Of a DNA stretch of 62,293 nt, positions 1 to 27,635 are shown piece after piece. A model generated the notes under the pieces. The model saw only the letters and a program-made list of their open reading frames with translations, did not search any database and was not told where the DNA came from. Both the position numbers and the translations under genes were made by a program. The stretch comes from Nitrospirota bacterium. GTDB lineage: Bacteria > NPL-UPA2 > JAADIA01. Position 1 is the stretch's first letter, and each line of letters begins with the position of its first letter. The stretch is from positions 1 through 62,293 of the forward strand of contig JAADIA010000049.1 of NCBI GenBank assembly GCA_013151555.1, read 5' to 3'.

Positions 1-11
1 TGGGAGGTGTA

Positions 12-429
12 ATGATGGAAGGGCCTTATGGCGAGAAAGTAATGGAACATTTTAAAAATCCCCGGAATGTGGGCGAGATGGAAAATCCGGATGGTGTCGG
101 CCATGTCGGGAATCCGATATGTGGAGATATCATGGAACTTTATATCAAGGTCGAGGGGATGAAGATCGTTGATGCTAAGTTCAAAACCTTCGGCTGTGGC
201 GCGGCTATTGCCACCAGCAGCATGGTCACGGAACTTGTGAAAGGAAAAACCATTGATGATGCTTTAAAGATTTCTAACCGGGCCGTGGCCGAGGCTGGGC
301 GGTCTTCCTCCTATCAAGATGCACTGCTCCGTCTTAGCCGAACAGGCTCTGAGGTCGGCCATAGATAATTACCTGAAGAAGTCCAAAGGGGAAGAGACAA
401 AATCTGAAACCGGGGAGGGTACAGATTAA
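12..429 (+). pseudogene. iscU: IscU/NifU-N-type Fe-S cluster scaffold, reading frame broken near nt 294-296
   Basis: ORF 12..368 gives MEHFKNPRNVG, GNPICGD and FKTFGCGAAIA, which carry two of the three scaffold Cys. The conserved LGGLPPIKMHCSVLAEQALRSAIDNYLKK segment with the third Cys lies in the +1 frame (295..429, TAA at 427-429). GGAGGTG RBS at 3-9. Confidence 0.75.
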
Positions 430-452
430 GTCAATTAAAAATGCAAAATTAA

Positions 453-526
453 GACAGGATTTACAGGATTAAACCGGATAGAGATGAGGGAATAAGAAAA
501 ATTTAAAAAATCCAGTTAATCCTGGC
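453..526. repeat. Family A palindromic element, copy A1
   Basis: Left arm gacaggatttacaggattaaaccggat; right arm atccagttaatcctg. Confidence 0.75.
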
Positions 527-594
527 AAAAGAAGAGATTTAACCTTGCTTGATTTTGTCTGGGTAAATCAGGATCAATAAACAGGAGAAATGAT

Positions 595-1305
595 ATGATA
601 TCTCAAGAGATGTTGCAAAAAAAAGCGGAAGAACTGGAGTCGGGTAGTGCGGAGGAAATTTTAAAATGGGCTTTAACGGAATATGGAGATAAGGTAGCCC
701 TGGCCTGTAGTTTTGGAGCGGAGGATATGGTGCTCATCGATATGATGGTTAAGATAGACCCGCAAGCGCATATCTTCACTCTGGATACGGGAAGGCTTCC
801 CCAGGAAACTTACGAAGTAATGGAGAGGGTGAGAGAAAAATATGGGGCGAAGATCGCCGTCTTCTTTCCCGATACCAAGTCGGTCGAGGAAATGGAAGAG
901 AAACATGGCCCTAATCTTTTCTATAAGAGTCTGGAGTTAAGAAAATTATGTTGCACCGTTCGCAAGCTTGATCCTTTGAAGAGAGCATTTGCGGCCCTTT
1001 CTGCCTGGGTCTGCGGTCTGAGGAAAGAACAAGCGGTTACGCGTACCGGGATAAAGAAGGTAGAGATTGGCGCAGACCCTAACGCCATAGTCAAGATAAA
1101 TCCTTTAGCCGACTGGACGGAAAAACAGGTCTGGGATTATATTAAGAAGAATGATGTTCCCTATAATAAGTTACATGACCTCAACTTTCCCAGTATCGGT
1201 TGCTTGCCCTGTACCCGGGCGGTAACTCCCGGAGAGGATGTAAGAGCGGGACGCTGGTGGTGGGAAAGTCCGGAGCAGAAAGAGTGTGGATTGCATAAAA
1301 AGTAG
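595..1305 (+). CDS. cysH: Assimilatory adenylylsulfate (APS) reductase, Fe-S cluster CysH type
   Basis: PAPS/APS reductase fold. Cys-Cys pair (KLCCTVRK) plus CLPC (CxxC) and C-terminal catalytic ECGLH. AGGAGA RBS before ATG 595. Confidence 0.9.
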   Translation: MISQEMLQKKAEELESGSAEEILKWALTEYGDKVALACSFGAEDMVLIDMMVKIDPQAHIFTLDTGRLPQETYEVMERVREKYGAKIAVFFPDTKSVEEMEEKHGPNLFYKSLELRKLCCTVRKLDPLKRAFAALSAWVCGLRKEQAVTRTGIKKVEIGADPNAIVKINPLADWTEKQVWDYIKKNDVPYNKLHDLNFPSIGCLPCTRAVTPGEDVRAGRWWWESPEQKECGLHKK

Positions 1306-1395
1306 TTGAAGGTTGAAAGTATAAAGTTGAAAGTAAAAACGCTTTTTAGAGCTTTAAACCTTAAACCTTAAACCTTAAACTTTAAACTTTCAACT
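1306..1395. repeat. Family B heptamer array, copy B1 (inverted blocks)
   Basis: Five units of TTGAARG-type, a spacer, then six units of CYTTMAA-type. The arms are roughly three-quarters complementary by eye. Confidence 0.85.
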
Positions 1396-1407
1396 ATATT
1401 GGAGGTT

Positions 1408-2583
1408 ATGGTGAAAGACCAAATTGAACCCCATGGGGGTAAGTTGATAAATCGGGTGGTTGAAGAACGGGAGAGAGAATCGCTCATTGAGAAAGCTTTC
1501 AATCTCCGAGAAGTTCATCTTAGCAAGAGAGAGGTCTCTGACTTAGAGATGATCGCTACCGGGGCCTTTTCTCCCCTGACAGGGTTTATGGGAAGGGAAG
1601 ATTACGAGAGCGTTCTGGATGTGAAGAGATTGTCCAACGGCCTTGTCTGGACTATCCCCGTTACCCTTTCGGTAAAGGAGGAAGAAGCGAAGAAATTAAA
1701 GGTCGGGGAGGAGCTGTCTCTTCTGGACCCGGCCGGGACAACTCTGGCCATCCTTCATCTTGAAGAGATCTACCCGCATGATAAGGAAAAAGAAGCCCTT
1801 CAGATTTACGGTACCAGGGATAGAAAGCATCCGGGAGTAGATAAAGTTTACCTGATGGGGGAAGTCTTACTGGGAGGGAAAGTTACCGTTATCCGTCTGC
1901 CCAAACATGATGATTTTTCCCCTTACCGGCTTCCGCCCCGGGAGACGAGGAAATTATTTAAGGAAAAGGGCTGGAAAAGAGTTGCTGCTTTTCAAACCAG
2001 AAATCCTATCCATCGAGCGCACGAATATATTCAAAAATGTGCCCTGGAAATAGTGGATGGACTTTTTCTTCATCCCCTGGTAGGGGAGACAAAAGGCAGC
2101 GATATCCCCGCTGATATTCGCATAAAGAGCTATGAAGTCGTCCTGGAGAAATATTATCCTAAAGACAGGTTTATCATGGCCGTTCTCCCCATGGCTATGA
2201 GGTATGCGGGCCCCCGGGAGGCCATCCTCCATGCTCTCGTCCGGAAGAATTACGGAGCTACCCATTTTATCGTGGGAAGAGACCATGCCGGGGCGGGAAA
2301 TTTCTACGGGCCTTTCGATGCTCACTATATCTTTGACGAATTTGAACCGGAGGAATTAGGGATAACTCCCCTGTTCTTCGATAATGCTTTCTTCTGCAAA
2401 CAATGTCAGGGGATGGCTTCTTATAAGACCTGCCCGCATGAGTCCAGCGAACATATCTCTCTCAGCGGGACAAAAGTTCGGAGTCTCCTCCGCAAAAAAC
2501 AGCAACCTCCCGTGGAGCTTACTCGACCGGAGGTGGCTCAGGTATTGATTGAGGGAGCCTCCAGACCGGACTATCAAATATGA
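1408..2583 (+). CDS. sat: Sulfate adenylyltransferase (ATP sulfurylase)
   Basis: QTRNPIHRAHE and GRDHAG motifs, N-terminal PHGG. The ORF track starts at TTG 1399, but GGAGG at 1401-1405 favours ATG 1408 or GTG 1411. Confidence 0.9.
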   Translation: MVKDQIEPHGGKLINRVVEERERESLIEKAFNLREVHLSKREVSDLEMIATGAFSPLTGFMGREDYESVLDVKRLSNGLVWTIPVTLSVKEEEAKKLKVGEELSLLDPAGTTLAILHLEEIYPHDKEKEALQIYGTRDRKHPGVDKVYLMGEVLLGGKVTVIRLPKHDDFSPYRLPPRETRKLFKEKGWKRVAAFQTRNPIHRAHEYIQKCALEIVDGLFLHPLVGETKGSDIPADIRIKSYEVVLEKYYPKDRFIMAVLPMAMRYAGPREAILHALVRKNYGATHFIVGRDHAGAGNFYGPFDAHYIFDEFEPEELGITPLFFDNAFFCKQCQGMASYKTCPHESSEHISLSGTKVRSLLRKKQQPPVELTRPEVAQVLIEGASRPDYQI

Positions 2584-2584
2584 A

Positions 2585-2710
2585 ATCACGCGGTTCTTTT
2601 GCCGCCTGGCTGCGTTACACGCTGCGCTCCCTTGTGCGGCGTACAGAATATGTACGCCTCCGCAGTCGCTTGCGCAAGCCTTGCCAGACCGTCAAAACTC
2701 CTCGCGTGAG
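2585..2710. repeat. GC-rich imperfect palindrome of about 125 bp (single copy in this window)
   Basis: Outer atcacgcg / cgcgtgag, centre ggcgtac-agaatat-gtacgcc, with further partially complementary GC-rich segments. Confidence 0.7.
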
Positions 2711-2761
2711 ATAAGCTAATTACGCCGGCATTCTACAAAGTGTCGGTCCGGGATATGAACA

Positions 2762-3169
2762 ATGCCAATGAAGATAAAGCAATCCTGTTTCTCGGAGATG
2801 GTCGAACATTGTCAGCAGGAACATCCTCATGAAGCCTGCGGGATCCTGGCTGGTAAGGATGACCTGGTAACAAAAGTTTATAAGATGGCTAATACTTCCG
2901 AGACGCCGGAAATCTGTTATTCTATCGACACTAAAGTGTTGATTAAGCTCAATAAGGAAATGAGAAATTCCGGGCTGGAGATGCTGGGGATCTACCATTC
3001 CCATGGGTCCAGTGCTCCTTACCCTTCCGTCCGGGATGTAAAGGATGCGCACTATCCGGAAGCGAGCTATGTTATCGTTTCCTTAACCAATTGCTGCAAA
3101 CCGGAAGTGGCTGCGTTTAAAATCGTAGAGGGAAAGATAGAAGAGGAAGAGTTGATCCTGGACAATTGA
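2762..3169 (+). CDS. Stand-alone JAMM/MPN+ metalloprotease (Mec/HcyD/QbsD-like sulfur-carrier C-terminal peptidase)
   Basis: HSH-x7-S-x2-D in YHSHGSSAPYPSVRD with upstream E-x-x-CG. 135 aa, single domain. Confidence 0.85.
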   Translation: MPMKIKQSCFSEMVEHCQQEHPHEACGILAGKDDLVTKVYKMANTSETPEICYSIDTKVLIKLNKEMRNSGLEMLGIYHSHGSSAPYPSVRDVKDAHYPEASYVIVSLTNCCKPEVAAFKIVEGKIEEEELILDN

Positions 3170-3175
3170 AAAAAT

Positions 3176-3253
3176 AAACCACAAGATTTCACGAGATTAA
3201 CATAAAAAAATAATACAATTTTAAGAATAATCTGGTGTTAATCTGTGGTTAAA
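3176..3253. repeat. Family F palindromic element, copy F1
   Basis: aaaccacaagatttcacgagattaac ... aataatctggtgttaatctgtggttaaa. Confidence 0.85.
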
Positions 3254-3318
3254 TTCGTTGGTATTAGAAGGTTTCTCTATGGTAAAGTTTAATATATTCC
3301 ATATGGGGGAGGATAATC

Positions 3319-3651
3319 ATGGTTAAGGAAATCAATGATAATAATTTTCAAGCGGAAGTTTTAGAAGCGGATTTGCCGGTGCTGGTAGATTTCTGGGCTT
3401 CCTGGTGTGGCCCCTGCAAAAGGCTTGCTCCCCTTATAGAGGAGATAGCCGGGGAATACAGCGGGCGCCTGAAAGTTTGCAAACTTAACGTGGATGATAA
3501 TCCGGCAACGTCCCCGAAGTATGAAATTATGAGCATTCCTACTTTAATCATCTTCAAAGGGGGCGATGCCAAGGAACGGATTGTCGGACTGGTGCCGAAG
3601 TCCGCCCTGGAGGCGAAGATAAAACCGTATCTGAAAAACATAAAAACTTGA
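3319..3651 (+). CDS. trxA: Thioredoxin
   Basis: WCGPC active site, 110 aa, GGGAGG RBS. Confidence 0.95.
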   Translation: MVKEINDNNFQAEVLEADLPVLVDFWASWCGPCKRLAPLIEEIAGEYSGRLKVCKLNVDDNPATSPKYEIMSIPTLIIFKGGDAKERIVGLVPKSALEAKIKPYLKNIKT

Positions 3652-3729
3652 CAGGATTTACACGATAAACGGGATAAAAATAGGGAAAAATTAATATAAT
3701 TAAAAAATAAAAATCCTGTTCATCCTGTC
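3650..3729. repeat. Family A element, copy A2
   Basis: gacaggatttacacgataaacggga ... aaatcctgttcatcctgtc. The trxA TGA stop overlaps its first bases. Confidence 0.8.
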
Positions 3730-3782
3730 AAAAGAAGGAAGCGCTTTTAAGAATACCTGATCCTGTCGAAGGAGTAAAAAAA

Positions 3783-5108
3783 TTGCAATCAAACTCCCAA
3801 CTCTTTTCCCAGGCCCGGAAACACATCCCCGGCGGGGTGAATAGTCCCGTGCGAGCTTTTCAGGCCGTAGGGGGGACCCCGCTCTTTATAGATCGGGCAA
3901 AAGGGTCTAAGCTCTACAGTGCCGAGGGGAAAGAATATCTGGATTACTGTCTTTCCTGGGGAGCTTTAATTCTGGGACATAGTTGTCCCGGCGTCATCGT
4001 CGAAGTAAAGAAAGCCCTGGAGAAAGGAACCAGCTTTGGCGCTCCCACCCGGATGGAAACGGAGTTAGCCCGGAAGGCTTGTGAGGCGGTTCCCTCAATG
4101 GAACTGGTGCGGCTGGTGAACTCGGGAACGGAAGCCGTAATGAGCGCCATAAGAGTTGCCCGGGGCTATACCGGGAGAAATAAAATCATCAAATTCGCCG
4201 GCTCTTACCATGGTCATGCCGATTATCTTCTCGTGGAAGCCGGTTCCGGAGCCATGACGCTAAACGTAGGAACTGGAGATGCCGCCGGAGGGAGGGAAAG
4301 TCAATCTTTGCCGTCCAGTCTGGGGGTGCCGGAAGATTTTACCAAACATACTTTCGTTCTCCCCTACAATAATCTGAAAGCGGTAGAAGAAACCGTCAAG
4401 AAACACGCTGCCGATATCGCCTGTATAATCGTGGAACCTGTTTCCGGGAACATGGGAGTCATCCCTCCGCAGGAAGGTTTCCTGGAAGGTTTGCGCCGGA
4501 CTTGTGACCGGCATGATGTCATCTTAATATTTGATGAAGTAATTACCGGGTTCCGCCTTGCCTACGGCGGAGCCCAGGAACTCTTTTCTCTCAAGGCGGA
4601 TTTAACCTGCCTGGGCAAGATAATGGGAGGGGGGTTCCCTCTGGCGGCCTATGGAGGCAGGAAAGACATCATGGAATGTGTGTCTCCTTTGGGTAACGTC
4701 TATCAGGCGGGAACTCTTTCCGGGAATCCGGTAGCTACCACAGCCGGGCTGGCAACGTTAAATTTGTTATCTTCCCAGAAGGAAGAGTTATATAAATCGC
4801 TGGCAGAGAAGGCTGGTTATCTATATGCCGAAATAAAAAAAGAGGCTGAGAAGTCAGGGGTCGAGATGCAAATTCATCGGGTGGGTTCTATGCTTTCCCT
4901 GTTTTTCACTTCCCGCCCGGTCAGCGATTATGAGACGGCCAAGGCAACGGATACCGTAGCTTACCGCAAATTCTTTCATAAGATGTTGGAGGAAGGGGTT
5001 TACCTTCCTCCCTCCAATTTCGAATCTTACTTTCTCTCCTCTTCCCATAGCGGGGAGGATGTAGAGAAGACGATCCGGGCCGTTGGGGCAGCTATGAAAA
5101 AGATATGA
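3783..5108 (+). CDS. hemL: Glutamate-1-semialdehyde 2,1-aminomutase
   Basis: N-terminal IPGGVNSPVRAF, class III aminotransferase core, GKIMGGGFP Lys region. TTG start with GAAGGAG RBS. Confidence 0.9.
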   Translation: MQSNSQLFSQARKHIPGGVNSPVRAFQAVGGTPLFIDRAKGSKLYSAEGKEYLDYCLSWGALILGHSCPGVIVEVKKALEKGTSFGAPTRMETELARKACEAVPSMELVRLVNSGTEAVMSAIRVARGYTGRNKIIKFAGSYHGHADYLLVEAGSGAMTLNVGTGDAAGGRESQSLPSSLGVPEDFTKHTFVLPYNNLKAVEETVKKHAADIACIIVEPVSGNMGVIPPQEGFLEGLRRTCDRHDVILIFDEVITGFRLAYGGAQELFSLKADLTCLGKIMGGGFPLAAYGGRKDIMECVSPLGNVYQAGTLSGNPVATTAGLATLNLLSSQKEELYKSLAEKAGYLYAEIKKEAEKSGVEMQIHRVGSMLSLFFTSRPVSDYETAKATDTVAYRKFFHKMLEEGVYLPPSNFESYFLSSSHSGEDVEKTIRAVGAAMKKI

Positions 5109-5156
5109 GTCGCGAGTTATCAGAACTAATCACTATTGAAGGCAGGAGGAAAAAAC

Positions 5157-5369
5157 ATGAACCTTGTTATTAATGGGAAGAAGAAAGAATTGGAGGAAGG
5201 AACGACTGTCGGCCGGCTTCTGAAAATAAAAAAAGTCCGGCCCGAGGTAGTAACAGTGGAATTAAATGATCAAATAATTGAGAGAGAGAAATATGGAGAC
5301 ACGATCCTTAAAGAGGGAGACAGGTTGGAGCTGGTCTATTATATGGGAGGGGGAGTTGGTTTAGTTTAA
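5157..5369 (+). CDS. ThiS/CysO-like ubiquitin-fold sulfur carrier with residues beyond the Gly-Gly
   Basis: 70 aa from ATG 5157 (AGGAGGA RBS). Ends ...LELVYYMGGG-VGLV. The tail and the TAA stop lie in the first units of the downstream heptamer array. Confidence 0.75.
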   Translation: MNLVINGKKKELEEGTTVGRLLKIKKVRPEVVTVELNDQIIEREKYGDTILKEGDRLELVYYMGGGVGLV

Positions 5370-5466
5370 AGTTAAAAGTTTAAGGTCTAAAGTTAAAAGT
5401 TTAAGGTTTAAGGTTTAAAGTTGAAGGTTGAGGGTTAGGAATTGCAAAAAGACTTTAGACTTTATG
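5357..5466. repeat. Family B heptamer array, copy B2
   Basis: About 11 tandem GTTWAAR heptamers (5364-5439), then gactttagacttta as a short opposing arm. Confidence 0.85.
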
Positions 5467-5488
5467 TTTTCGGATCAAGGGAGAGATT

Positions 5489-6418
5489 ATGATGCAGTCA
5501 AAGGTGGTTAACAATGTATTGGAACTTATCGGCAATACCCCGTTGGTGAAGATGAACAAAATCGGAGAAGAAAATATGGCCGAAGTTCTGGCCAAGTTAG
5601 AAAGTTTTAATCCCGGAGGGAGCGTTAAGGATAGAATCTGCCTGAATATGATTGAGGATGCCGAGAAGAGAGGCCTTCTCAAGCCGGGGGCGATTGTTGT
5701 GGAGCCTACCTCGGGCAATACGGGAATCGGGTTGGCCATGGTGGCGGCTGTCAAGGGCTATAAATGTATTCTTACCATGCCCGAGACGATGAGCGTTGAG
5801 CGTCGTTATATCCTGGAATCCTATGGGGCCGAGATTGTGCTCACCCCGGGCATTGAAGGGATGATGGGAGCGGTAAAGAAGGCCGAGGAGATAGTCCGGA
5901 ATACTCCTAATTCTTTCTTGCCTCAGCAGTTCAAAAATCCAGCTAACCCGGACGTACACCGTCGGACTACCGCGGCAGAAATATTAGCTGCCACGGAAGG
6001 AAAGTTAGAAGCTTTCGTGGCTGGGGTGGGTACCGGAGGGACGATTACCGGCGTAGGCGAAATACTTAAAAAAGAGATTCCTTCCGTGAAAATCATCGCC
6101 GTCGAGCCGGAAACCTCCCCGGTTCTTTCCGGAGGCGAACCCGGGCCCCATAAGATTCAAGGGATAGGGGCAGGGTTCATTCCCGAAGTGCTTAACCGCA
6201 AGATAATTGATGAGATGATTCCGGTAAGTGATGACGATGCTTTTCATACTACCAAGCGGCTGGCCCGGGAAGAAGGAATCTTCGCAGGAATATCATCAGG
6301 AGCGGCTGTCTTTGCCGCCCTCAAAGTGGCTAAGGATTTAGGTAAAGAAAAGAGAGTTGTCGTTATTCTTCCCGATACCGGGGAGAGATACTTTAGTATG
6401 GAACAATACTTTGAATAG
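5489..6418 (+). CDS. cysK: Cysteine synthase (O-acetylserine or O-phosphoserine sulfhydrylase, CysK/CysM family)
   Basis: PLP fold type II: SVKDR lysine motif, [18 protein letters not shown]. CysK versus CysM cannot be resolved by eye. Confidence 0.9.
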
Positions 6419-6433
6419 AGATAATTTAAAAAG

Positions 6434-6513
6434 CAGAATTAAGGATTAAGTGGTAAGAATTAAGCAAAAACATTTAATTCTTAGAACGAAGTGAGCATCT
6501 TAATCATTAACCC
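6434..6513. repeat. Family E (GGATTAA heptamer) element, copy E1
   Basis: cagaattaaggattaagtggtaagaattaagc ... ttagaacgaagtgagcatcttaatcattaaccc. Confidence 0.85.
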
Positions 6514-6585
6514 TACATCGTTAAATCTCCGCGTCTCTGTGGTTAAGTGTGTTGTAGTACTACCGTAAAAATAAGGAGAGTCTTG

Positions 6586-7449
6586 ATGGCTGAGCACGAT
6601 CTTAATGCGTTGAAAAGCTCGGGATTTATGACCCAGAAGGAGAAAGACCTCTTCTCGGTGAGACTGCGGATTGCCGGTGGGTATATCAAGGCTGAGCAGT
6701 TGCCTAAGTTGGCAGAAATATCCAAGAAGTTTGGGCGGGGGCATCTTCACCTGACGACCAGGCAAGGGATAGAGATTCCTTATGTTCACTTCGATAATCT
6801 GGAGAAGGTGAGAAATGAATTGGCCGAAGTAGGTTTAAAAATAGGAGCTTGTGGTCCCCGGGTGCGGACAGTAACGGCTTGTCAGGGAGAAGCTTGTTCT
6901 CACGGTCTTATTGAAGCTCAGCATCTGGGAAAAAAAATAGACGAGATTTTCTTCGGCCGGTCCGGTATCCCGCACAAGTTTAAGATCTGCGTCACCGGTT
7001 GTCCCAATGCCTGTATCAAGCCGGTGGAGAATGACTTCGGGATAATGGGAGTGGTCAGGAAGATTTTCGTCAAGGAAAAGTGTAACTATTGCCGGTTATG
7101 CCAGGAGGTCTGTCCGGTGGGAGCTATCAAGGTGGAAGAGAACGAACTTCACTATGATCCTTCCAAGTGTATCTTCTGCGGCGACTGTATCTTTGCCTGT
7201 CCCTCCTATGCCTGGGAACAGGAGAAGGTAGGATACAAAATCTTCGTGGGCGGAAAGATGGGCAAGTTCCCTGATCTTGGCCGGGAAGTTTTCAGTTTCT
7301 GGGAGGGAGAAGAAAGACTTTTCCAACTTATCGAAAAGACCCTGGATTTCTATAAGGAAGCAGGGAAAAAGGGAGAGAGGTTCGGAGGAACCATCGGTCG
7401 GATTGGGCTGGATAATTATAAAGAGAAGATGGAGGCGGCTATCGCATGA
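6586..7449 (+). CDS. Small sulfite/nitrite reductase-like protein with inserted 2x[4Fe-4S] ferredoxin domain (AsrC/Dsr-LP-like)
   Basis: Nitrite/sulfite reductase ferredoxin-like half-domain (LRIAGG...[11 protein letters not shown]). Cys clusters TACQGEAC and CVTGCPNAC. Two CxxCxxCxxxCP-type motifs ([24 protein letters not shown]). Likely start ATG 6586 after AAGGAGAG. Confidence 0.7.
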
Positions 7450-8642
7450 TAAAGATCTATCTTGACCAGGCAGCGGCAACTCTCCCTCTGCCGGAAGTGG
7501 TAGAGGAGATGATTCCTTACCTGAGGGAGAAGTTCGGTAACCCTTCCAGCCTCCACGAGGTCGGACAGGTGGCCAGAAAGGCAGTGGAAGAAGCCCGGGC
7601 TCGGGTAGCCGGACTGATCAAAGCCGACCCGGAAGAGATCTTCTTCACCTCCGGAGGGACAGAGTCCAACAATTTTGCTTTGAAGAGTATGGCCTTTGCT
7701 CATCAGGATAAAGGGAAGCATATCGTTACCTCGGTCATTGAGCACCATTCCATAATTCATTCGGCTAAGGCCTTAGAGAAATTAGGATTTGAAGTAACTT
7801 ATCTCCCGGTAGACAAATTTGGTTTTGTTGACCCCCGGGCGGTAAAGGGAGCCTTGCGGGAAGGGGAGACGATCCTCGTTTCCATCATGCATGCTAATAA
7901 TGAGGTAGGAACGATCGAGCCCATAGCGGAAATCGGCCGGGTGATAAAAGAATATAACGAAAATTTGGCCTCGAAATCCGGGCGGCGAATTTACTTTCAT
8001 ACCGATGCCGTCTCCACAGTGGGGACAATTCCCGTGGATGTTAAGGAGTTGGGAGTAGACCTTTTGAGTTTGGCGGCTTGCCAGTTCTATGGTCCTAAAG
8101 GAGCGGGAGCTCTCTTTGTTAAAAAGGGAGTCCGGATTATACCTTTCCTCCACGGAGGCATTCAAGAGGGGGGAAGGCGGGCCGGAACGGAGAATGTCGC
8201 CGGAATCGTCGGTTTGGGGAAGGCTGCGGAGATAGTCTCCCGAGAAATGGGTTCCTGGAACGAACGGATAACCGGTCTGAGGGACCGCTTGATAAACGGC
8301 TTGCAGGAAAAGATAGACCATCTTTACCTGAATGGTCATCCCACTAAAAGGCTTCCCGGAAACGTGAATGTCTGTGTAGAGTTTATAGAGGGAGAATCCA
8401 TGCTCCTTTATCTGGGTATGGAAGGGATTGCTGTTGCCAGCGGTTCGTCCTGCACCTCCCACGCCTTGAAAGCTTCCCATGTCCTTGTAGCTTTAGGGGT
8501 GGACCCGGCCTTAGCTCAAGGTTCGCTCCTCTTCAGCTTGGGGAAAGACAACAGTGAGGAAGACATCGATTGTGTCCTGGAGGAAATGCCTCCGATAGTC
8601 AACCGTCTGAGGCAGATGTCACCGCTTTATAAAAAACCGTAA
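7446..8642 (+). CDS. iscS: Class I cysteine desulfurase (NifS/IscS)
   Basis: [15 protein letters not shown], active-site loop ASGSSCTSH. The start overlaps the upstream stop (ATGA at 7446-7449). Confidence 0.9.
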
Positions 8643-8785
8643 CCACGGATAAACTAACTAAAAAGGTAAAGCACAAAATTAAAAGAGATGAAACCCCGAG
8701 ATTATCCAAGATTTACACGAGAGAAGAGAGAACAAGAACAAATTTAGAGATTACTAAGAAAAATCTTGTAATAATCCCTGCCCTC
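8641..8785. repeat. Family F-like element, copy F3 (degenerate)
   Basis: aaccacggataaac ... ccgagattatccaagatttacacgag ... aaatcttgtaataatcc. Confidence 0.55.
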
Positions 8786-8832
8786 CTCAGGAGGGTGGAT
8801 AACCTGTATCTGCAACTTATCACGGTGAGATT

Positions 8833-9084
8833 ATGGAAGAGATAAAAGTAGACGAGACTTTAGATTGTTTTGGCCTTATCTGCCCGGTGCCGGTGCATCT
8901 CACGGCCAAAAAGATAAAGCAATTTCAGGTAGGGCAAGTCCTGGTAGTGATTGCCGACGACCCCGACTCTCTGCAGGACATACCTGCCTGGTGCAAGTCC
9001 AGTGGGCATAAGCTCCTCCGGTTCGAACCGGAAGGAAATATCTATAAATTTTACATCAGGAAAGAAGCCGAGCAGAATAAATAG
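8833..9084 (+). CDS. TusA/SirA-like sulfurtransferase
   Basis: 83 aa, LDCFGLICPVP (CPxP motif). Confidence 0.8.
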   Translation: MEEIKVDETLDCFGLICPVPVHLTAKKIKQFQVGQVLVVIADDPDSLQDIPAWCKSSGHKLLRFEPEGNIYKFYIRKEAEQNK

Positions 9085-9188
9085 GGCGGAGAAGAAGAGC
9101 AAGGGAAGCAGGAGGGTGGATTTAAGTTGATATTATTCCCGTCTCCAGATATAATAAGGGAAGTTAAGGCAGAAAAAAAGGGTTAACC

Positions 9189-9425
9189 ATGAGCGAAATG
9201 AAAGCGGATGAAAAGTTAGATTTAAGGGGAGAGATTTGCCCCTATAACTTTGTGAAAACGAAGCTCAAACTGGAAGAGATGGAGATAGGACAGATATTGG
9301 AAGTGGTTATTGATAATGGGGAACCGATAAAGAATGTTCCCCGCAGCCTGAAAGAAGATGGACATCAAATTCTTAAAGTGGAGAGAATTGAGCAGTATTT
9401 CAAGTTGGTGATAAAGAAGAGTTAA
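9189..9425 (+). CDS. TusA/SirA-like protein, variant motif
   Basis: 78 aa, LDLRGEICPYNF: the Cys-Pro is kept and the second Pro is lost. The stop lies in heptamer array B3. Confidence 0.7.
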   Translation: MSEMKADEKLDLRGEICPYNFVKTKLKLEEMEIGQILEVVIDNGEPIKNVPRSLKEDGHQILKVERIEQYFKLVIKKS

Positions 9426-9451
9426 AAGTTTAAGGTTTAAAGTTTAAAGTA
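9421..9451. repeat. Family B heptamer array, copy B3
   Basis: gttaaaa gtttaag gtttaaa gtttaaa gt. Confidence 0.8.
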
Positions 9452-9458
9452 AGATGGG

Positions 9459-10706
9459 GTGATGAAAGTGTCTTATGTGAAAGGTTTGAAATGTCGGGAG
9501 TGTGGACGGCACTATCCTAAGGAAGCCCTCTATGTCTGTGAATACTGTTTTGGCTCCCTGGAAGTTGATTACGACTACGCTCGCATCAAGAAAAAACTCA
9601 CTCGAAAAGAATTGACCTCCCGCCCGCAGAACCTCTGGCGTTATAGAGAGCTCCTCCCTCTTGATAAAGCGCCAACCGATGGGATGGGTTCGGGATTTAC
9701 CCCTTTGATAAAAGCCGATAACCTGGCCCGGGAATTGGGAGTCAGGGAACTTTATATAAAAGACGATTCGGTTAACCATCCTACCCTCTCTTTCAAGGAC
9801 CGGGTAGTAGCTGTAGCTCTCTCCAAAGCCAAAGAGTTTGGCTTCGATACGGTAGCCTGTGCTTCAACCGGAAACCTGGGTAATTCAGTATCCGCCCAGG
9901 CAGCAAAGGCAAATCTTGAACGCTATATCTTCATTCCTGCGGATTTAGAGATGGGCAAAGTAATCGGCTCGCTTATCTATGCTCCGAACCTCATCGCTGT
10001 GGAAGGAAACTATGATGAAGTAAACCGTCTCTGTGCCGAGATTGCCTTCAGATACAAATGGGCTTTCGTGAACATCAATATCAGGCCTTACTATGCCGAA
10101 GGGTCAAAGACTTATGCCTATGAAATAGCGGAGCAGTTCGGGTGGCGGGCTCCGGACCATATCGTTGTTCCCTCTGCCGGGGGTTCTCTGATTACGAAAG
10201 TCTGGAAGGGTCTCAACGAACTCTATAAAATCGGCTTAATCGATGATAAACCGCGGACCAAAGTTTATTGTGCCCAGGCAGAAGGATGTGCTCCTATAGT
10301 CACGGCCATCAAGGAGAATAGCGAAGTAATCAAACCGGTAAAACCGCAGACTATCGCTAAATCTCTGGCCATCGGCAACCCCGCTGATGGCTACTATGCC
10401 GTGAACACTGTCCAGACAAGCGGCGGTTGGGGAGAGGAAGCCGACAATGAGGAAATTGTGGAAGGAATGAAACTCCTGGCGCGAACGGAAGGAATCTTCA
10501 CCGAGACTGCCGGAGGGGTAACGGTGGCCGTAACTAAAAAATTGATTGCCCAGGGCCGGATTCCCCGGGACGAATCTATAGTGATTGCCATAACCGGAAA
10601 CGGTCTCAAGACTCAGGAAGCAATCTCCGAGCATATCGGGAGATTTACCAAGATAAAACCGACCCTGGCTTCTTTTGAGAAAAAAGTAAAAGCTCGCCGG
10701 CGTTAG
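9459..10706 (+). CDS. Threonine synthase-family PLP enzyme with N-terminal zinc ribbon (ThrC or MetM-like)
   Basis: CRECG...CEYC ribbon, SFKDR PLP-lysine motif, ASTGN. Start ambiguous (GTG 9459, ATG 9462 or GTG 9468). Confidence 0.8.
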   Translation: MMKVSYVKGLKCRECGRHYPKEALYVCEYCFGSLEVDYDYARIKKKLTRKELTSRPQNLWRYRELLPLDKAPTDGMGSGFTPLIKADNLARELGVRELYIKDDSVNHPTLSFKDRVVAVALSKAKEFGFDTVACASTGNLGNSVSAQAAKANLERYIFIPADLEMGKVIGSLIYAPNLIAVEGNYDEVNRLCAEIAFRYKWAFVNINIRPYYAEGSKTYAYEIAEQFGWRAPDHIVVPSAGGSLITKVWKGLNELYKIGLIDDKPRTKVYCAQAEGCAPIVTAIKENSEVIKPVKPQTIAKSLAIGNPADGYYAVNTVQTSGGWGEEADNEEIVEGMKLLARTEGIFTETAGGVTVAVTKKLIAQGRIPRDESIVIAITGNGLKTQEAISEHIGRFTKIKPTLASFEKKVKARRR

Positions 10707-10730
10707 AATAAGGAACTGAATGAAAAAACA

Positions 10731-10819
10731 GACAGGATTAACAAGATATACCGGATGGTTTTAAAAACAAAACTTTACAAAAAATTTTTAGACATCCGGT
10801 TAATCCCGTAAATCCTGTC
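10731..10819. repeat. Family A element, copy A3
   Basis: gacaggattaacaagatataccggatgg ... gacatccggttaatcccgtaaatcctgtc. The first 21 nt are identical to A4. Confidence 0.85.
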
Positions 10820-10848
10820 AGATTTTCTTTTTTCAAGGAGGGACCAAG

Positions 10849-11130
10849 ATGCCCATCAAAGTGAAGATACCCACGCCTTTACAGAAATTGACTAAGAATC
10901 AGGCTGAGGTGGAGAGTGAAGGGAAGACTGTCCAGGAGTTAATTGATGACCTGGAAAAGAATTATCCCGGGATCAAGGAAAGAATCTGCGATGAAAAAGG
11001 AAAAGTACGCCGGTTCATAAATATCTATGTGAACGAAGAAGATGTGAGGTTCTTGAAGGGGGATGATACTCCCGTAAAAGATGGAGATGAGATATCCATT
11101 ATCCCGGCTATTGCAGGAGGAGCAAGTTAG
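10849..11130 (+). CDS. MoaD/ThiS-family sulfur carrier ending GG-AS
   Basis: 93 aa. C-terminus ...[23 protein letters not shown]. Confidence 0.8.
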
Positions 11131-11236
11131 CCCTCACTTCGTTCAGGGCTAACTTAATTGCAAATTGAAGATTGGAAATTGAAAATTTTAAAATAAAAAA
11201 AGTTTCTTTGAAAAGCATCTTTTTTTAATTTTCGAC
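11127..11236. repeat. Family G element (hairpin plus AAATTGA heptamers), copy G1
   Basis: ttagccc-tcacttcgttca-gggctaa hairpin holding the carrier gene's TAG stop, then aattgca aattgaa gattgga aattgaa aatttta. Confidence 0.8.
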
Positions 11237-11256
11237 TATATAAGTGAGGTTGTAAG

Positions 11257-12060
11257 ATGTCCGATTTTACCGATGAGCAGGTTAAAAGATACAGCCGGCA
11301 GATAATTCTGCCTCAGGTAGGAGGGAAAGGACAGAGGAAACTGTTCGAGGCCAAAGTTCTTATCATTGGAGCCGGAGGTTTGGGTTCGCCCGCCTCCCTT
11401 TACTTAGCCGCAGCGGGGGTAGGCCATCTTGGCATAGTTGATAGCGATGAGGTAGAGGTAAGCAATTTGCAACGGCAGATATTACACTCTACCCGCGACG
11501 TCGGCAGACCGAAAACGAGCTCGGCTAAAGATAGATTAACGAACCTCAATCCTGATGTGGAAGTAATTGTTCATGAGGTGCGTGTTACCTCGGAGAACAT
11601 TCTGAATATAATTAAAGATTACGATATCGTCATTGACGGCAGCGATAATTTCCCTACCCGTTATTTGGTAAACGATGCCTGTGTTATATCCAGGAAACCT
11701 TTATCTCACGGAGGAATATTTCGCTTTGACGGCCAGGCAATAACCATCATTCCGGGCAAAGGTCCCTGCTACCGCTGTCTTTTCCCCGAACCCCCTCCCC
11801 GGGGATTGGTTCCCAGTTGCCAGGAAGCAGGAATTCTGGGAGCAGTAGCGGGAGTCATCGGTCTCATTCAAGCCAATGAAGTATTAAAATTTATCCTGGA
11901 CATAGGGGAACTGTTGGTGGGGAAACTTCTTATTTTCAACGCTCTGGAATCCAGCTTCCGACAGGTTGCCGTCCCCAAGGATAAAAATTGTCCCGTCTGC
12001 GGAGATAATCCTACCATAACTGAGTTGATCGATTACGAAGAATTTTGTTCACTTCGGTGA
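11257..12060 (+). CDS. MoeB/ThiF/HesA-family E1-like adenylyltransferase without a rhodanese domain
   Basis: RYSRQI, GAGGLGSP nucleotide loop, two CxxC pairs (CYRC, CPVC). 267 aa. Confidence 0.85.
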   Translation: MSDFTDEQVKRYSRQIILPQVGGKGQRKLFEAKVLIIGAGGLGSPASLYLAAAGVGHLGIVDSDEVEVSNLQRQILHSTRDVGRPKTSSAKDRLTNLNPDVEVIVHEVRVTSENILNIIKDYDIVIDGSDNFPTRYLVNDACVISRKPLSHGGIFRFDGQAITIIPGKGPCYRCLFPEPPPRGLVPSCQEAGILGAVAGVIGLIQANEVLKFILDIGELLVGKLLIFNALESSFRQVAVPKDKNCPVCGDNPTITELIDYEEFCSLR

Positions 12061-12068
12061 GGATAAAA

Positions 12069-12206
12069 AACCTAACCGCAGAGATACGGAGGACACGGAG
12101 AAACCTCTGAAAAAATTTGTAACTATAGATTATCACAAGATTAACAATTAAAAAAAGAATTAGATTAAATCTTTTTCTGGGTAAATCTCGTGAAATCTTG
12201 TGGTTT
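12069..12206. repeat. Family F element, copy F2
   Basis: The right arm aatctcgtgaaatcttgtggttt (12184-12206) is the exact reverse complement of the F1 left arm (3176-3198, 23 nt). The left part is aaccgcagagatacggaggacacggag. Confidence 0.85.
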
Positions 12207-12272
12207 ATATTTTATCCTCAAGGTTTTTCTCGGTGAGTTCTGTGGTGAAAATAAATAGTGGAGGTAAAGAAA

Positions 12273-12512
12273 ATGGCTAAACAAATGGTCAAATTGACTT
12301 TTCCCCAGGAGTTGATTAAAGAACCGGTTACCTTTAAAATGGCCAAGAAATATGACATCATCCCCAATATCCGCCGAGCCCGGGTCAGTGAGACCGTAGG
12401 GGAAATCGTTCTGGAACTGGAAGGGAAGAAAGAGAATCTGGACAAAGGGATCAAATATTTAGAGAAGCGTAATGTCAAAGTCGAACCGATAGTAGGAGAC
12501 ATCGTAGAATAA
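12273..12512 (+). CDS. Stand-alone NIL-domain protein
   Basis: 79 aa from ATG 12273 (GGAGGT RBS). Resembles the MetN C-terminal NIL domain (VKLTFP...EPV...NI..A.V...GEIVLELEG). Confidence 0.6.
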   Translation: MAKQMVKLTFPQELIKEPVTFKMAKKYDIIPNIRRARVSETVGEIVLELEGKKENLDKGIKYLEKRNVKVEPIVGDIVE

Positions 12513-12543
12513 GAAAATAAACCCGCCTATCTTCCCCTAATGA

Positions 12544-12631: not shown

Positions 12632-12676
12632 ATCGGGATAAGCCCAGGGTGTAGCCTGTTTTAAGAGGCTCTTGCT

Positions 12677-14736: not shown

Positions 14737-14743
14737 TATAATA

Positions 14744-14775: not shown

Positions 14776-14800
14776 TCTTTTAACAATAACCGTAATCAAG

Positions 14801-27624: not shown

Positions 27625-27635
27625 TTCTTTCTGCT

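Follow-up and report, generated by a model that had tools for sequence, protein, structure and literature searches.

Tandem heptanucleotide arrays and their turnover in an uncultured candidate-phylum bacterial lineage

We have followed tandem arrays of seven-nucleotide units along a 62,293-nt contig (the window) and through the contigs of its relatives. The arrays are of a kind described before, the heptanucleotide simple-sequence repeats of bacteria, and they change quickly between relatives. They persist only where they are tolerated, namely in transcribed intercistronic spacers and in surface loops or linkers of proteins. They are probably hypermutable microsatellites of the STRR/LSSR kind, generated by slippage and lasting where they do no harm; their effects on the structure of mRNAs and on linkers of proteins would be incidental. 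In repeat-rich bacteria, no long microsatellites are more common than heptanucleotide repeats, and the contig and its relatives form a compact natural experiment in which the same junctions carry no array, a short seed, a long array, an array of another unit or inverted arrays.

Of the named protein relatives, a 'candidate division NPL-UPA2' MAG comes closest (80% identity) and Omnitrophota come next (~67%); the genes of the contig are non-photosynthetic (VOR, Pel, LPS and sulfur assimilation). Looked up as an exact sequence, the enolase of the window matched no recorded protein. By protein similarity, the host appears to be an uncultured, NPL-UPA2-like candidate-phylum lineage and not a cyanobacterium, in agreement with the original prediction, which saw no cyanobacterial hallmarks. 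The phenomenon is thereby extended to such a lineage, and its GTTWAAR unit recurs across Bacteroidota, Cyanobacteria and other phyla.

Period-7 arrays in the window

Runs were scored in 28-nt scanning windows with a self-match of at least 75%, with 50 Markov-1 shuffles as the null. The contig holds 19 period-7 runs, whereas the shuffles average 0.12. The same scan gave 0 runs at periods 5-6 and 3-4 at periods 8-10; periods 4-6 show no enrichment, and a control of 50 kb of E. coli gave 0 period-7 runs. Array density on the 62-kb contig is 0.29 runs per kb. Eight period-7 arrays (B1 to B8; family B, unit GTTWAAR) had been predicted, and all were found at, or a few bases off, the coordinates given earlier. 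The description of family B as period-7 arrays stood. Sites 6 and 7 are not intergenic and lie in frame inside ORFs. The other six occupy co-directional intercistronic spacers. Outside the arrays, lone GTTWAAR heptamers are about as frequent as expected (18 and 17 observed versus 19.3 expected per strand), and the enrichment of family B is therefore specifically tandem. The components of family B are as follows.

1305-1339, plus strand: left arm of B1, five GTTGAAR-type units (GTTGAAG, GTTGAAA, GTATAAA, GTTGAAA, GTAAAAA)
1340-1351: loop of B1, between the two arms
1352-1394, minus strand: right arm of B1, six YTTWAAC units (GTTWAAR on the minus strand)
5357-5437, plus strand: B2, direct array of ~11 units with a 21-nt super-period
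5450-5464, minus strand: two inverted AGACTTT units (AAAGTCT on the minus strand) downstream of B2
9420-9450, plus strand: B3, 4.4 units, the whole 33-nt spacer from the tusA2 stop codon (9423-9425) to the start of a thrC-like gene (9459)
14744-14775, plus strand: B4, 4.5 units between two minus-strand GT4 glycosyltransferase genes
23170-23219, minus strand: B5, ~7 units overlapping the stop codon of a lipid A acyltransferase gene (23205-24164, minus strand)
35744-35785, plus strand: B6, six units (42 nt, 14 codons) in frame in the HATPase_c domain of a histidine kinase (34095-36026)
44131-44166, minus strand: B7, five TTKAAAG units with a perfect 14-nt super-period, in frame in a VorB-like ORF (43638-44702, minus strand)
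46186-46221, minus strand: direct part of B8, five units adjoining the pelG Shine-Dalgarno sequence and start codon (GGAGATAAGATG; start 46175)
46224-46295, both orientations: hairpin part of B8, inverted AGTCTWA/TWAGACT units directly after the pelF stop codon

Family B does not stand alone: the contig has further arrays of period 7 and period 8, which are listed here with predicted RNA folds.

11156-11192, plus strand: AATTGAA (RTTGAAA in another register), between thiS2 and thiF
22294-22386, both orientations: ACAGAWG/CTTCTGT-type inverted pair at the GT2-polysaccharide deacetylase junction; hairpin of -36.6 kcal/mol, z = -5.5
26763-26798, minus strand: CTTCGTG family, at the 3' end of the DUF374 ORF
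27505-27635, both orientations: inverted pair of the 8-mer AGGCACAG, between an MsbA-like ABC transporter gene and DUF374; hairpin of -50.7 kcal/mol, z = -5.3
37996-38036, plus strand: ACAGAAG/ACGGAGG, coding for the C-terminal TEDRRRRTEDR-stop of a response-regulator/HD protein
48640-48730, both orientations: inverted ATTAAGW arrays across the TPR gene stop codon and the TPR-pelF spacer; hairpin of -26.6 kcal/mol, z = -4.2
60442-60483, plus strand: AATTGAA/ATTGTAA with a 14-nt super-period, upstream of the enolase gene

An array or hairpin is present in 13 of the 41 spacers of at least 20 nt. Intercistronic B arrays often begin at the upstream stop codon and finish near the next ribosome-binding site. 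The first G of B1 is the last base of the TAG stop codon (1303-1305) of cysH, which encodes PAPS reductase; the right arm ends 6 nt before the Shine-Dalgarno sequence GGAGG (1401-1405) of sat, which starts with GTG at 1411 and has a called product of 390 aa. The stop codon of a ThiS-like ORF (5136-5369, C-terminus GGGVGLV-stop) falls within the first units of B2, and the array ends ~50 nt upstream of a cysK/M-like gene (5489). B3 lies inside a transcript predicted to begin near a promoter-like site at 9127-9155. B5 ends ~40 nt upstream of the start of a GT2 gene (23127), and B4, which is alone among the direct arrays in running antisense, ends 7 nt before an ATG at 14736. Thus, B1, B3 and B8 adjoin a Shine-Dalgarno sequence or start codon, B2 and B5 stop 40-50 nt upstream, and the distance from array to start codon is not fixed (4 to ~50 nt). 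Canonical GGAGG-type Shine-Dalgarno sequences are present. Units such as GTTTAAG and GTTAAAA place TAA in each frame within 21 nt, and the first array units contain or touch the stop codons of cysH, the ThiS-like ORF, tusA2 and the LpxL-like gene. Transcribed spacers tolerate TAA in all three frames, and the array often supplies the upstream stop codon.

Super-periods fit some arrays better than period 7 does: self-match in B2 is 88% at period 21 versus 79-81% at 7, and in B7 it is 100% at period 14. These super-periods of 14 and 21 nt therefore point to stepwise duplication in place. Under the microsatellite reading, slipped-strand mispairing or unequal exchange would both create the arrays and alter their length on the spot, one to three units (7, 14 or 21 nt) at a time. 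The inverted arrays would come from strand or template switching, which the palindromic TTAA/TTTAAA core should favor. The consequences would be by-products with no designed function: compact or overlapping junctions would be lengthened and uncoupled, the next ribosome-binding site would be preceded by an A/U-rich unstructured leader or a long imperfect stem-loop, and hydrophilic peptide linkers with a 7-residue period would be created.

Turnover between relatives

Orthologous spacers of relatives with 79-90% identical proteins carry fewer units, another unit in the same layout or no array. At the cysH-sat spacer, compared among the window, L001, L002, L003 and L131 (Sat identity 79-90%), B-type arms occur in the window and L001, a GTCTRAA unit with the arm order swapped occurs in L002, and L003 and L131 have no array in a spacer of 32-40 nt. 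The right arm of B1 has six units in the window versus four in L001, and B2 has at least 11 units where L002 has a seed of 2-3. In the leader of pelG, the array counts 5 units in the window, 3.5 in L129 and 4 in L130, and the hairpin part of B8 is absent from both L129 and L130. The original prediction had called for a comparison of copy number, and unit numbers do differ at the B1, B2 and pelG leader loci. Judged from these orthologous sites, turnover of the arrays is fast. Members of 90% protein clusters differ in the start codon only. A metagenome scan with PelG returned relatives that are only 38% and 25% identical and of no use for orthologous spacers.

In L125, a more distant relative (VorB 76% identical), the lipid A gene junctions overlap or abut, at -4, -4, -34, -4 and 11 nt, versus 147, 12, 250, -43 and 77 nt in the window, where the repeats lie in the long junctions. 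There is no period-7 run in the 17.8 kb of L125. Comparison with these compact junctions indicates that the arrays are a derived state.

Repeats can mis-assemble, and the L133 contig ends in an 8-mer array (10443-10491), so an assembly artefact was weighed as a source of the arrays. All B arrays are at most 110 nt long, the arrays inside ORFs hold the reading frame, and homologous arrays stand at the same sites in independent assemblies (L001, L126, L129, L130 and L133) that come from other samples and pipelines (Logan, JGI, NCBI). On this evidence an artefact is next to impossible. Nor are the arrays confined to one contig, the other outcome that had been held to count against the prediction, as contigs of relatives also carry them. 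The arrays break contigs, make spurious ORF extensions and alter predicted C-termini (e.g., the ThiS-like GG terminus), and for these reasons annotators need to recognize them.

Hairpins, orientation and candidate cis-acting roles

Hairpins had been predicted at B1 and B7. B1 does fold, with 32-nt arms that are 81% complementary and a predicted RNA fold of -23.4 kcal/mol (z = -3.7), and its right arm can pair with the left arm in several registers; B7 (44131-44166) is without any inverted partner. Among the B sites, only 1 and 8 are predicted to form hairpins. The B8 hairpin has 14-17-nt arms of the AGTCTWA/TWAGACT unit (z = -2.6 for the predicted fold), which is one substitution from GTTTAAA. 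Long hairpins occur at the cysH-sat and TPR-pelF spacers in more than one lineage with unrelated sequences, and in both predicted folds the Shine-Dalgarno sequence is left unpaired. For B2, no stable fold is predicted (z = -0.6).

Several known functions of hairpins and spacers were tried and rejected. The stems are A/U-rich without a U-tail, and an intrinsic terminator is thus not matched, with no G+C-rich stem followed by a U-tract and no terminator-like site at the B arrays in 1-15000. GTTGAAA contains TTGAAA, and three units plus 2 nt give a 17-bp spacing to TAAAGT; a consensus scan for promoters found no site within the B arrays that faces the adjacent genes, and the one promoter-like site that begins in B4 faces the other way. 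Known structured RNA families were searched with the curated covariance models of Rfam at gathering score, and the sole match in the window is a tRNA (62168-62241).

The arrays might instead be selected cis-acting mRNA elements, the direct ones serving as A/U-rich, unstructured standby or S1-binding leaders with weak Shine-Dalgarno-like UAAGG motifs that tune translation of the next cistron, and the inverted ones as REP-like stem-loops that protect or process polycistronic mRNA. The co-directional placement of six of the eight B arrays, the position of B1, B3 and B8 beside a Shine-Dalgarno sequence or start codon and the lack of predicted structure in B2 would suit such a role. A Nostoc preprint reports altered reporter expression upon deletion of heptamer repeats (10.1101/2022.06.06.494920), and MacGregor proposed translational control for the TAACTGA repeats (PMC4679880). 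The recurrence of hairpins at two spacers despite different sequences, and the retention of the pelG leader array in three lineages, could reflect selection for structure or leader. However, close relatives have intact operons without arrays at the same junctions (L003, L131, L125), the distance to the start codon varies, unrelated units stand at equivalent positions and units also occur inside ORFs. The B1 hairpin was compared in two sequences only, the window and L001; of two substitutions in the arms, one leaves a wobble pair intact and the other disrupts a pair, and the comparison gave no sign of covariation.

Orientation bears on the same question. Of the 13 direct arrays on the contig, 12 have their purine-rich strand as the sense strand, even though the direction of the genes changes four times (p = 0.003), and this shared orientation counts in favor of an element acting in mRNA. 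The sense strand is itself purine-loaded (purine fraction 0.558 in spacers and 0.536 in coding sequence), which partly explains the bias. Among named genomes, at least 120 stretches carry GTTWAAR arrays of four or more units; about ten phyla are represented, chiefly Bacteroidota and filamentous Cyanobacteria. Cyanobacterial hosts include Rivularia, Richelia, Scytonema, Calothrix, Moorena and Okeania, where the arrays stand beside CAACTGT-type arrays. The 87 placeable arrays in other phyla are without exception intergenic, none lying inside an ORF of at least 100 aa, and 32 are sense and 34 antisense. This 32:34 split rules out a universal strand-specific RNA role, and the lack of a strand preference across phyla therefore favors a mutational origin over a conserved RNA function. 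Taken with the turnover at orthologous junctions, we regard selected cis-acting elements as rather unlikely.

A dedicated heptamer-recognizing nucleic-acid-binding protein, with the arrays as its multimeric sites and the neighboring genes as a regulon, would be served by the same unit at eight loci, in tandem copies suited to cooperative binding, and by unit families common to related genomes; the idea has a precedent as a hypothesis in the work of MacGregor on TAACTGA. We consider it very unlikely: the neighboring genes have no functional theme (sulfur assimilation, LPS, Pel, 2-oxoacid oxidoreductase, kinase), units are degenerate within an array, at least five other unit families behave alike, arrays come and go between close relatives, and no candidate binding protein was identified on the contig.

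Arrays inside proteins and known repeat systems

Two B arrays are coding. B6 makes up most of a 16-residue insertion that the L124 orthologue is without, and an in-frame TAA has been lost through a GTTAAAA to GTCAAAA change. B7 codes for PVEFKVESLKLKG in a hypervariable linker between POR_N and PFOR_II; the corresponding linker of P0123 has an extra 7 residues (= 3 units). Stop codons are gone exactly where the reading frame would meet TAA. In protein loops and linkers, only multiples of three units persist, with the in-frame stops mutated away, and the VorB linker illustrates how a unit that is not a multiple of three can become coding, as three-unit blocks with the stops edited out.

In all close relatives the VorB linker consists of a heptamer array, made of A-rich, lineage-specific units, and the B-type block occurs only in the window, L126 and L133 lineage. 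Clean replacement of one unit by another was considered for this linker and softened: the units of L124, L129 and L130 have an A-rich core in common, so divergence and homogenization in place suffice.

One-unit changes in VorB or the kinase would shift the frame, because the unit length is not a multiple of three, and many neighboring genes have envelope functions (LPS, Pel), as is classical for phase-variable loci. The arrays might then be contingency loci at which gain or loss of a single 7-nt unit switches genes through a frameshift or through leader spacing. Against this, the arrays inside ORFs are degenerate and thereby less prone to slippage, the more than 20 homologues compared show in-frame states only, and VorB and the sulfur-assimilation genes are housekeeping. 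Guo and Mrazek, as summarized in a citing paper, found no functional enrichment for such repeats. Contingency loci are accordingly a highly improbable reading.

A few unit families (B, AGTCTWA, ACAGAAR, CTTCGTG and AGGCACAG) recur at many loci and in several related genomes; the CTTCGTG family is also found in L003 (7422-7453) and the AGGCACAG 8-mer family in L124 and L133. Such recurrence is not obviously what purely local, independent slippage would predict. It would be expected of a mobile or actively written element, whether a MITE/REP-like hairpin, an attC site or the product of reverse-transcriptase- or telomerase-like synthesis at many sites, as would the presence of the same families at unlinked loci, including inside ORFs. 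The contig does carry genuine dispersed elements (6429-6510/40932-41016 and 42114-42234/58670-58792), and hairpins between co-directional genes with GTT...AAC superficially recall attC (GTTRRRY/RYYYAAC).

Each of these identities was examined. All-against-all BLAST of spacers gave B-B matches limited to the repeated part (22-44 nt) with no unique flank; the B copies thus share no unique core or termini, their length varies continuously, and family B is therefore not a MITE. The REP/BIME elements of enterobacteria carry ~35 nt of conserved sequence, are mobilized by RAYT transposases and can protect mRNA 3' ends. The B hairpins resemble them as imperfect hairpins in intercistronic operon spacers, and protection of mRNA 3' ends is a plausible analogy, whereas the B arrays are tandem 7-mers without a conserved core. 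In attC sites, a core of RYYYAAC (5') and GTTRRRY (3') bounds an imperfect palindrome at cassette boundaries, with intI nearby. The arm order of B1 is the opposite (GTT-type 5', AAC-type 3'), and the genes on either side are housekeeping genes whose synteny holds in the presence and in the absence of the hairpin, and hence no cassettes. The 62-kb contig was found to carry no integrase, transposase, RAYT or reverse transcriptase. Given also the super-periods, which speak for growth in place, a mobile or written element is very improbable.

A broader version holds that a small repertoire of 7-8 nt units (GTTWAAR, AGTCTWA, ACAGAAR, CTTCGTG, AGGCACAG) is actively copied from locus to locus by a dedicated process, be it template switching, gene conversion or a writer akin to a reverse transcriptase, and that the arrays serve as exchangeable 'spacer cassettes' governing coupling, mRNA structure and linker sequence. 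Two spacers that keep hairpins while their sequence is replaced, and a VorB linker array with another unit per lineage, would be compatible with this version, which we nonetheless hold to be quite unlikely.

The hypermutable microsatellite reading places the arrays among known repeats. Heptanucleotide units are dominant among the long simple-sequence repeats of many repeat-rich prokaryotes (Mrazek, Guo and Shah 2007, as summarized in PMC4679880 and PMC4692102); those summaries give Xanthomonas, Burkholderia, Beggiatoaceae and Bacteroidetes as examples and mention polymerase slippage as a proposed explanation for the 7-nt preference. Here, likewise, 7-nt tandem runs exceed chance, lie mostly in non-coding, intergenic DNA at many loci of the contig, have period 7 dominant and a sporadic distribution across phyla, and vary in unit number between relatives. 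The NPL-UPA2-like host is outside that survey; several unit families co-exist here, many as inverted pairs, and two arrays run in frame within proteins despite a unit length that three does not divide. The rarity outside cyanobacteria that the original prediction implied does not hold, with heptamers already described as the dominant long-repeat class in repeat-rich prokaryotes and GTTWAAR in about ten phyla.

Its comparison with cyanobacterial STRR sequences was right as to kind, in that both are several families per genome of dispersed tandem heptanucleotide arrays, mostly intergenic and without an established function. The three families that Mazel and colleagues reportedly described in 1990 are STRR1 (CCCCAGT), STRR2 (TTGGTCA) and STRR3 (CAACAGT), whereas the units here are GTTWAAR, AATTGAA, ACAGAWG, ATTAAGW, CTTCGTG and others, in a host that is no cyanobacterium.

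TAACTGA direct repeats of marine Beggiatoaceae, also present in Cyanobacteria and Bacteroidetes, have 2-6 copies and one inverted repeat only (MacGregor 2015, PMC4679880), and a binding protein was raised for them as well as translational control. They resemble the present arrays in carrying stops in all three frames, often overlapping the upstream stop codon and occurring occasionally at the periphery of ORFs. They often stand in forward orientation a few nucleotides before the next start codon, in place of a canonical Shine-Dalgarno sequence; of the B arrays, B1, B3 and B8 come close to this position, B2 and B5 end farther upstream and B4 is antisense. They differ in their unit, and the window has many families, up to at least 11 units per array, five inverted pairs versus one, a variable distance to the start codon and Shine-Dalgarno sequences. 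The GGGAATC and GGGGAYT heptamers of Xanthomonas and Nostoc vary much in length and sequence between close relatives and include some inverted pairs (Rehm et al. 2015, PMC4692102); the stem-loop potential of these pairs is shared, but those repeats are G-rich and form G-quadruplexes, whereas GTTWAAR is A/T-rich without G-tracts. Borg tandem repeats, as far as the account in PMC9879509 goes, are in frame, create intrinsically disordered regions and belong to the element, the host having virtually none. Like the VorB linker and kinase loop, they are rapidly evolving, lineage-specific repeats that make hydrophilic or disordered segments; unlike what that account describes, the unit here is 7 nt, the peptide period is 7 residues and all three frames are read in turn.

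Apart from the arrays, one of the genuine dispersed elements on the contig (6429-6510 and 40932-41016) has a unique core common to its copies and is also present in L002, and a second occupies 42114-42234 and 58670-58792.

Tandem period-7 arrays in the window

Eight arrays of the heptamer GTTWAAR (family B, sites B1 to B8) had been predicted in the window, and Tandem Repeats Finder recovered all eight, with 14- or 21-nt super-periods often matching better than 7:

1305-1394, B1, cysH|sat spacer
5357-5464, B2, ThiS|cysK/M spacer
9420-9450, B3, spacer array at the tusA2 stop
14744-14775, B4, spacer array
23170-23219, B5, spacer array at the LpxL-like stop
35744-35785, B6, within histidine kinase ORF 34095-36026 (+)
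44131-44166, B7, within VorB-like ORF 43638-44702 (-)
46186-46295, B8, spacer array

Autocorrelation (28-nt windows, at least 75% self-match, periods 4-12) counted 19 period-7 runs in the window, whereas 50 Markov-1 shuffles averaged 0.12, with no comparable excess at other periods from 4 to 12; a 50-kb control stretch of E. coli K-12 gave 0. Outside arrays, lone GTTWAAR heptamers occur at the expected rate (18 and 17 observed versus 19.3 expected per strand), so the signal is specifically tandem repetition. The core observation is confirmed, and an assembly artefact, the concern raised with the original prediction, is excluded because arrays recur at orthologous sites in independent assemblies.

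Six arrays occupy spacers between co-directional genes and tend to start at the upstream gene's stop. B1 opens with the G of the cysH stop TAG, the TAA stops of the ThiS-like and tusA2 ORFs fall within the first units of B2 and B3, and the TAA of the LpxL-like ORF lies in B5. The arrays end 4 to about 50 nt before the Shine-Dalgarno sequence of the next gene, and with units such as GTTTAAG and GTTAAAA every reading frame meets a TAA within 21 nt. Terminator and promoter readings were rejected, as no terminator-like site coincides with a family B array in 1-15000 and no array coincides with a promoter-like site facing neighboring genes. No array matched an Rfam family.

Sites B6 and B7 lie in frame within ORFs. 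B6 (six units, 42 nt, 14 residues) forms most of a 16-residue HATPase_c insertion missing in the orthologous kinase of a relative (L124), and the sole position where its frame would give TAA has GTCAAAA, not GTTAAAA. B7 encodes PVEFKVESLKLKG in the VorB linker between the POR_N and PFOR_II domains, and alternates TTTAAAG with TTGAAAG such that the frame never reads TAA.

Hairpins had been proposed at B1 and B7; the former is a long imperfect hairpin, whereas B7 has no inverted partner. The left arm of B1 (1305-1339: GTTGAAG GTTGAAA GTATAAA GTTGAAA GTAAAAA) is followed by a 12-nt loop and a right arm (CTTTAAA CCTTAAA CCTTAAA CCTTAAA CTTTAAA CTTTCAA C) ending at 1394. Its 32-nt arms are 81% complementary and can pair in several registers offset by 7 nt (RNA fold -23.4 kcal/mol, fold-energy z = -3.7). 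The B8 hairpin is built of the variant unit AGTCTWA with arms of 14-17 nt, and no structure is predicted for direct arrays (B2 z = -0.6).

The ThiS-like sulfur-carrier ORF (5136-5369) ends GGGVGLV*, four residues past its conserved glycine motif (GGG) and into B2; C-terminal extensions in relatives are also short and variable (GGGC*, GGGRLKI*, GGGELDE*). By analogy with CysO/Mec-type cysteine biosynthesis, the Prok-JAB protease encoded in the same operon (2762-3169) might free the glycine C-terminus. A promoter-like site (9127-9155; TTGATA, 17 nt, TATAAT; 11/12 matches) lies upstream of the second tusA-like ORF (9189-9425), which is not in the 80-aa ORF list.

Orthologous junctions in relatives

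The window spans an entire metagenome contig (62,293 nt) with housekeeping operons. It carries genes for sulfur assimilation and sulfur carriers (nifU, cysH, sat, JAB, thioredoxin, ThiS-like, cysK/M-like, sulfite reductase-like, two tusA, thrC-like, thiS, thiF), LPS and lipid A (GT4, GT2, GT9, Kdo kinase, LpxL-like, LpxK, MsbA-like), a two-component system, purM and purN, a VOR-type 2-oxoacid:ferredoxin oxidoreductase, the Pel polysaccharide operon and enolase; no integrase, transposase or reverse transcriptase is among them. The best named relative of VorB belongs to a 'candidate division NPL-UPA2' MAG (80% identity), followed by Omnitrophota at about 67%. The NPL-UPA2 genome paper makes no mention of repeats.

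Relatives' loci (L numbers) were compared where Sat or VorB was 76-90% identical. At cysH|sat, L001 keeps the B1 hairpin with two point changes and a right arm of 4 units versus 6 in the window, in L002 a different unit (GTCTRAA/TAGACYA) makes up a similarly sized hairpin whose G-type arm lies on the opposite side, and L003 and L131 have plain spacers of 40 and 32 nt. At ThiS|cysK/M, a 2-3-unit seed in L002, GTTAGTTTAAAGTTTAAAC, corresponds to at least 11 units in the window. The direct array by the pelG Shine-Dalgarno sequence has 5 units in the window, 3.5 in L129 and 4 in L130, and the hairpin beside it occurs in the window only. Long hairpins at TPR|pelF are found in both the window and L129, built from unrelated short-period repeats.

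The VorB linker consists of about six heptamers in every close relative, although not of one and the same unit: the window, L126 and L133 have TTKAAAG, L129 has ATGYAAA, L130 has ACAGAAR and L124 has AAAACYC. VorB homologues have a matching 7-residue periodicity in the linker, where one (P0123) carries an additional 7-residue block equal to 3 units. The A-rich units of L124, L129 and L130 are similar enough for divergence and in-place homogenization to explain them.

Within the lipid A block, L125 (VorB 76%) has overlapping or abutting genes (-4, -4, -34, -4 and 11 nt), whereas the same junctions in the window measure 147, 12, 250, -43 and 77 nt, with repeats in the long spacers; the 17.8 kb of L125 contain no period-7 runs. 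Repeat-filled spacers are therefore a derived state of a sub-clade, and the turnover of individual arrays falls at roughly 10-15% protein divergence.

Origin and consequences of the arrays

The arrays are real and striking, and of a known kind. According to Mrazek and colleagues, as cited in PMC4679880 and PMC4692102, the long SSRs of repeat-rich prokaryotes are predominantly heptanucleotides, with polymerase slippage as the proposed cause; family B matches this class. It behaves like the G-rich heptamers of Xanthomonas and Nostoc, which lie between the same genes and vary widely in length and sequence, some of them forming inverted pairs (PMC4692102). It also behaves like the TAACTGA repeats common to Beggiatoaceae, Cyanobacteria and Bacteroidetes, which in Beggiatoaceae give three-frame stops, extend over upstream stop codons, lie before start codons and occasionally occur at ORF peripheries (PMC4679880). 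By sequence and host, family B belongs neither to the TAACTGA family nor to cyanobacterial STRR1-3, and it did not pass as a MITE/REP element, attC site, terminator or Rfam family. In a Nostoc preprint, heptamer repeats are reported to have a modest influence on reporters, with no mechanism defined (10.1101/2022.06.06.494920). To this class the present case adds its host lineage, the many unit families and inverted arrays that occur side by side, a clean series of comparisons at conserved operon junctions, and a protein linker spelled out in heptamers throughout a clade.

A scan for (GTTWAAR)x4 in one genome per GTDB species returned at least 120 stretches. The majority of the matches listed are from Bacteroidota and filamentous or heterocystous Cyanobacteria (Rivularia, Richelia, Scytonema, Calothrix, Moorena, Okeania, Microcoleus), with others from Ignavibacteria, Desulfobacterota-type MAGs, Calditrichia, Acidobacteriota, Chloroflexota and a few Gammaproteobacteria and Firmicutes. 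These listed arrays reach 17 units and frequently lie next to other heptamer families, in some cases with an inverted array facing them; a crude ORF call puts 0 of the 87 placeable ones inside an ORF of at least 100 aa. Between co-directional genes, 32 of the listed matches are sense and 34 antisense. In contrast, 12 of 13 direct arrays in the window are purine-rich on the sense strand (p = 0.003), a bias that partly follows the general purine loading of the genome's sense strand.

We consider it probable that the arrays are hypermutable microsatellites that form and change length in place and that selection then leaves only at tolerable positions, because of their nested 7/14/21-nt periods, orthologous unit-number differences and seed-to-array transition, their rapid gain, loss and change without shared flanks, and the ORF frame arithmetic, variable start-codon distance and lack of strand preference in other phyla. 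Anatomy, statistics, orthologous variation, in-frame insertions and distribution are direct observations, and the mechanism is drawn from what is established for simple-sequence repeats and quasi-palindromes: slippage would create and resize arrays in place, and template switching, aided by the palindromic TTAA/TTTAAA core, would yield inverted arms. The main rival, that selection acts on some array effects such as the leader or hairpin, is hinted at by the kept pelG leader array and by the recurrence of hairpins at cysH|sat and TPR|pelF; we regard it as rather unlikely. A further reading, active copying of a shared repertoire of units between loci, seems improbable to us. The arrays must still have effects: gene junctions that overlap in relatives would become uncoupled, the next ribosome-binding site would be preceded by a long stem-loop or by a leader that is A/U-rich, carries UAAGG motifs and is predicted to be unstructured, and hydrophilic protein linkers with a 7-residue period would arise.

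Other repeat families and dispersed elements

Further short-period families occur in the window:

11156 and 60442, heptamer AATTGAA
22294-22386 and 37996, heptamer ACAGAWG
48640-48730, heptamer ATTAAGW
26763, heptamer CTTCGTG
27505-27635, 8-mer AGGCACAG

Several form inverted pairs with strong predicted hairpins (z -4.2 to -5.5), and 13 of the 41 window spacers of at least 20 nt contain an array or hairpin of heptamer/8-mer type. In an all-against-all spacer BLAST, family B copies matched one another solely in the repeated part, which rules out a MITE and identifies a simple-sequence repeat. The same search found true dispersed elements with unique cores, together with short intergenic repeats (21-32 nt, 90-97% identical):

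6429-6510, 40932-41016 and partial 48663-48694; L002 232-291, hairpin element of ~85 nt
42114-42234 (+) and 58670-58792 (-), second element
3169-3198 / 12184-12213, short repeat
10731-10762 / 25255-25286, short repeat
502-534 / 3709-3737 / 25328-25348 / 31910-31931, short repeat
27528-27556 / 51179-51207, short repeat

The window spacers are a mosaic of small repeats resembling that of some cyanobacteria. The ~85-nt element has ATTAAGW heptamer arms and a conserved non-repetitive core, GCGAACGAAGTGAGCGTCT; its copies are 85-90% identical at non-orthologous loci of two genomes (cysK|sir, purM|purN and Rrf2|cysteine desulfurase), and its behavior, in contrast to that of family B, is that of a MITE/REP-type mobile element. 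The second element (87% identity over about 125 nt, opposite orientations) has nested stems (GTAGTGG...CCACTAC, GTCGAGC...GCTCGAC), an internal GCGGGCACAG x2 repeat, no Rfam match and a consensus fold of -33.7 kcal/mol, its two copies being too few for covariation; it could be a small RNA or a mobile element. L001 (about 7030-7085) and L129 (about 5095-5150), from one sample, have a common hairpin with conserved loop TGTGCCCCGAAGGGGTA, whose stems differ yet stay complementary (GGGTCGGAT/ATCCGACCC versus GGGCTTGAT/ATCAAGCCC), which looks like compensatory change in another dispersed hairpin family.

A sigma-70-like promoter (TTGACG, 17 nt, TAAAAT/TAGAAT/TACAAT) overlapping the pelG stop codon is conserved upstream of vorB:

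44703-44774 (-), window
5021-5180, L129
7061-7147, L130
about 1240-1290, L126

An 8-nt direct repeat comes after this promoter: GTGCTCMA x2 in L129 and L130, GGGTTCAA x2 in the window. In L130 (about 3250-3306), pelF probably has its true start at the GTG following GGAGAATTAGCGA, which aligns with the window and L129; a 12-nt repeat, CCGCATGAAGMT x3 (encoding PHE[AD]), would then lie inside the PelF N-terminus. A tRNA gene (62168-62241; Rfam tRNA, 60 bits) follows a DivIC-like gene at the right contig end. In L133, which is the closest relative by VorB, a perfect 8-mer array, CTGGAGCA (10443-10491, about 5-6 copies), forms the end of the contig, and arrays of this type probably break assemblies in the clade.
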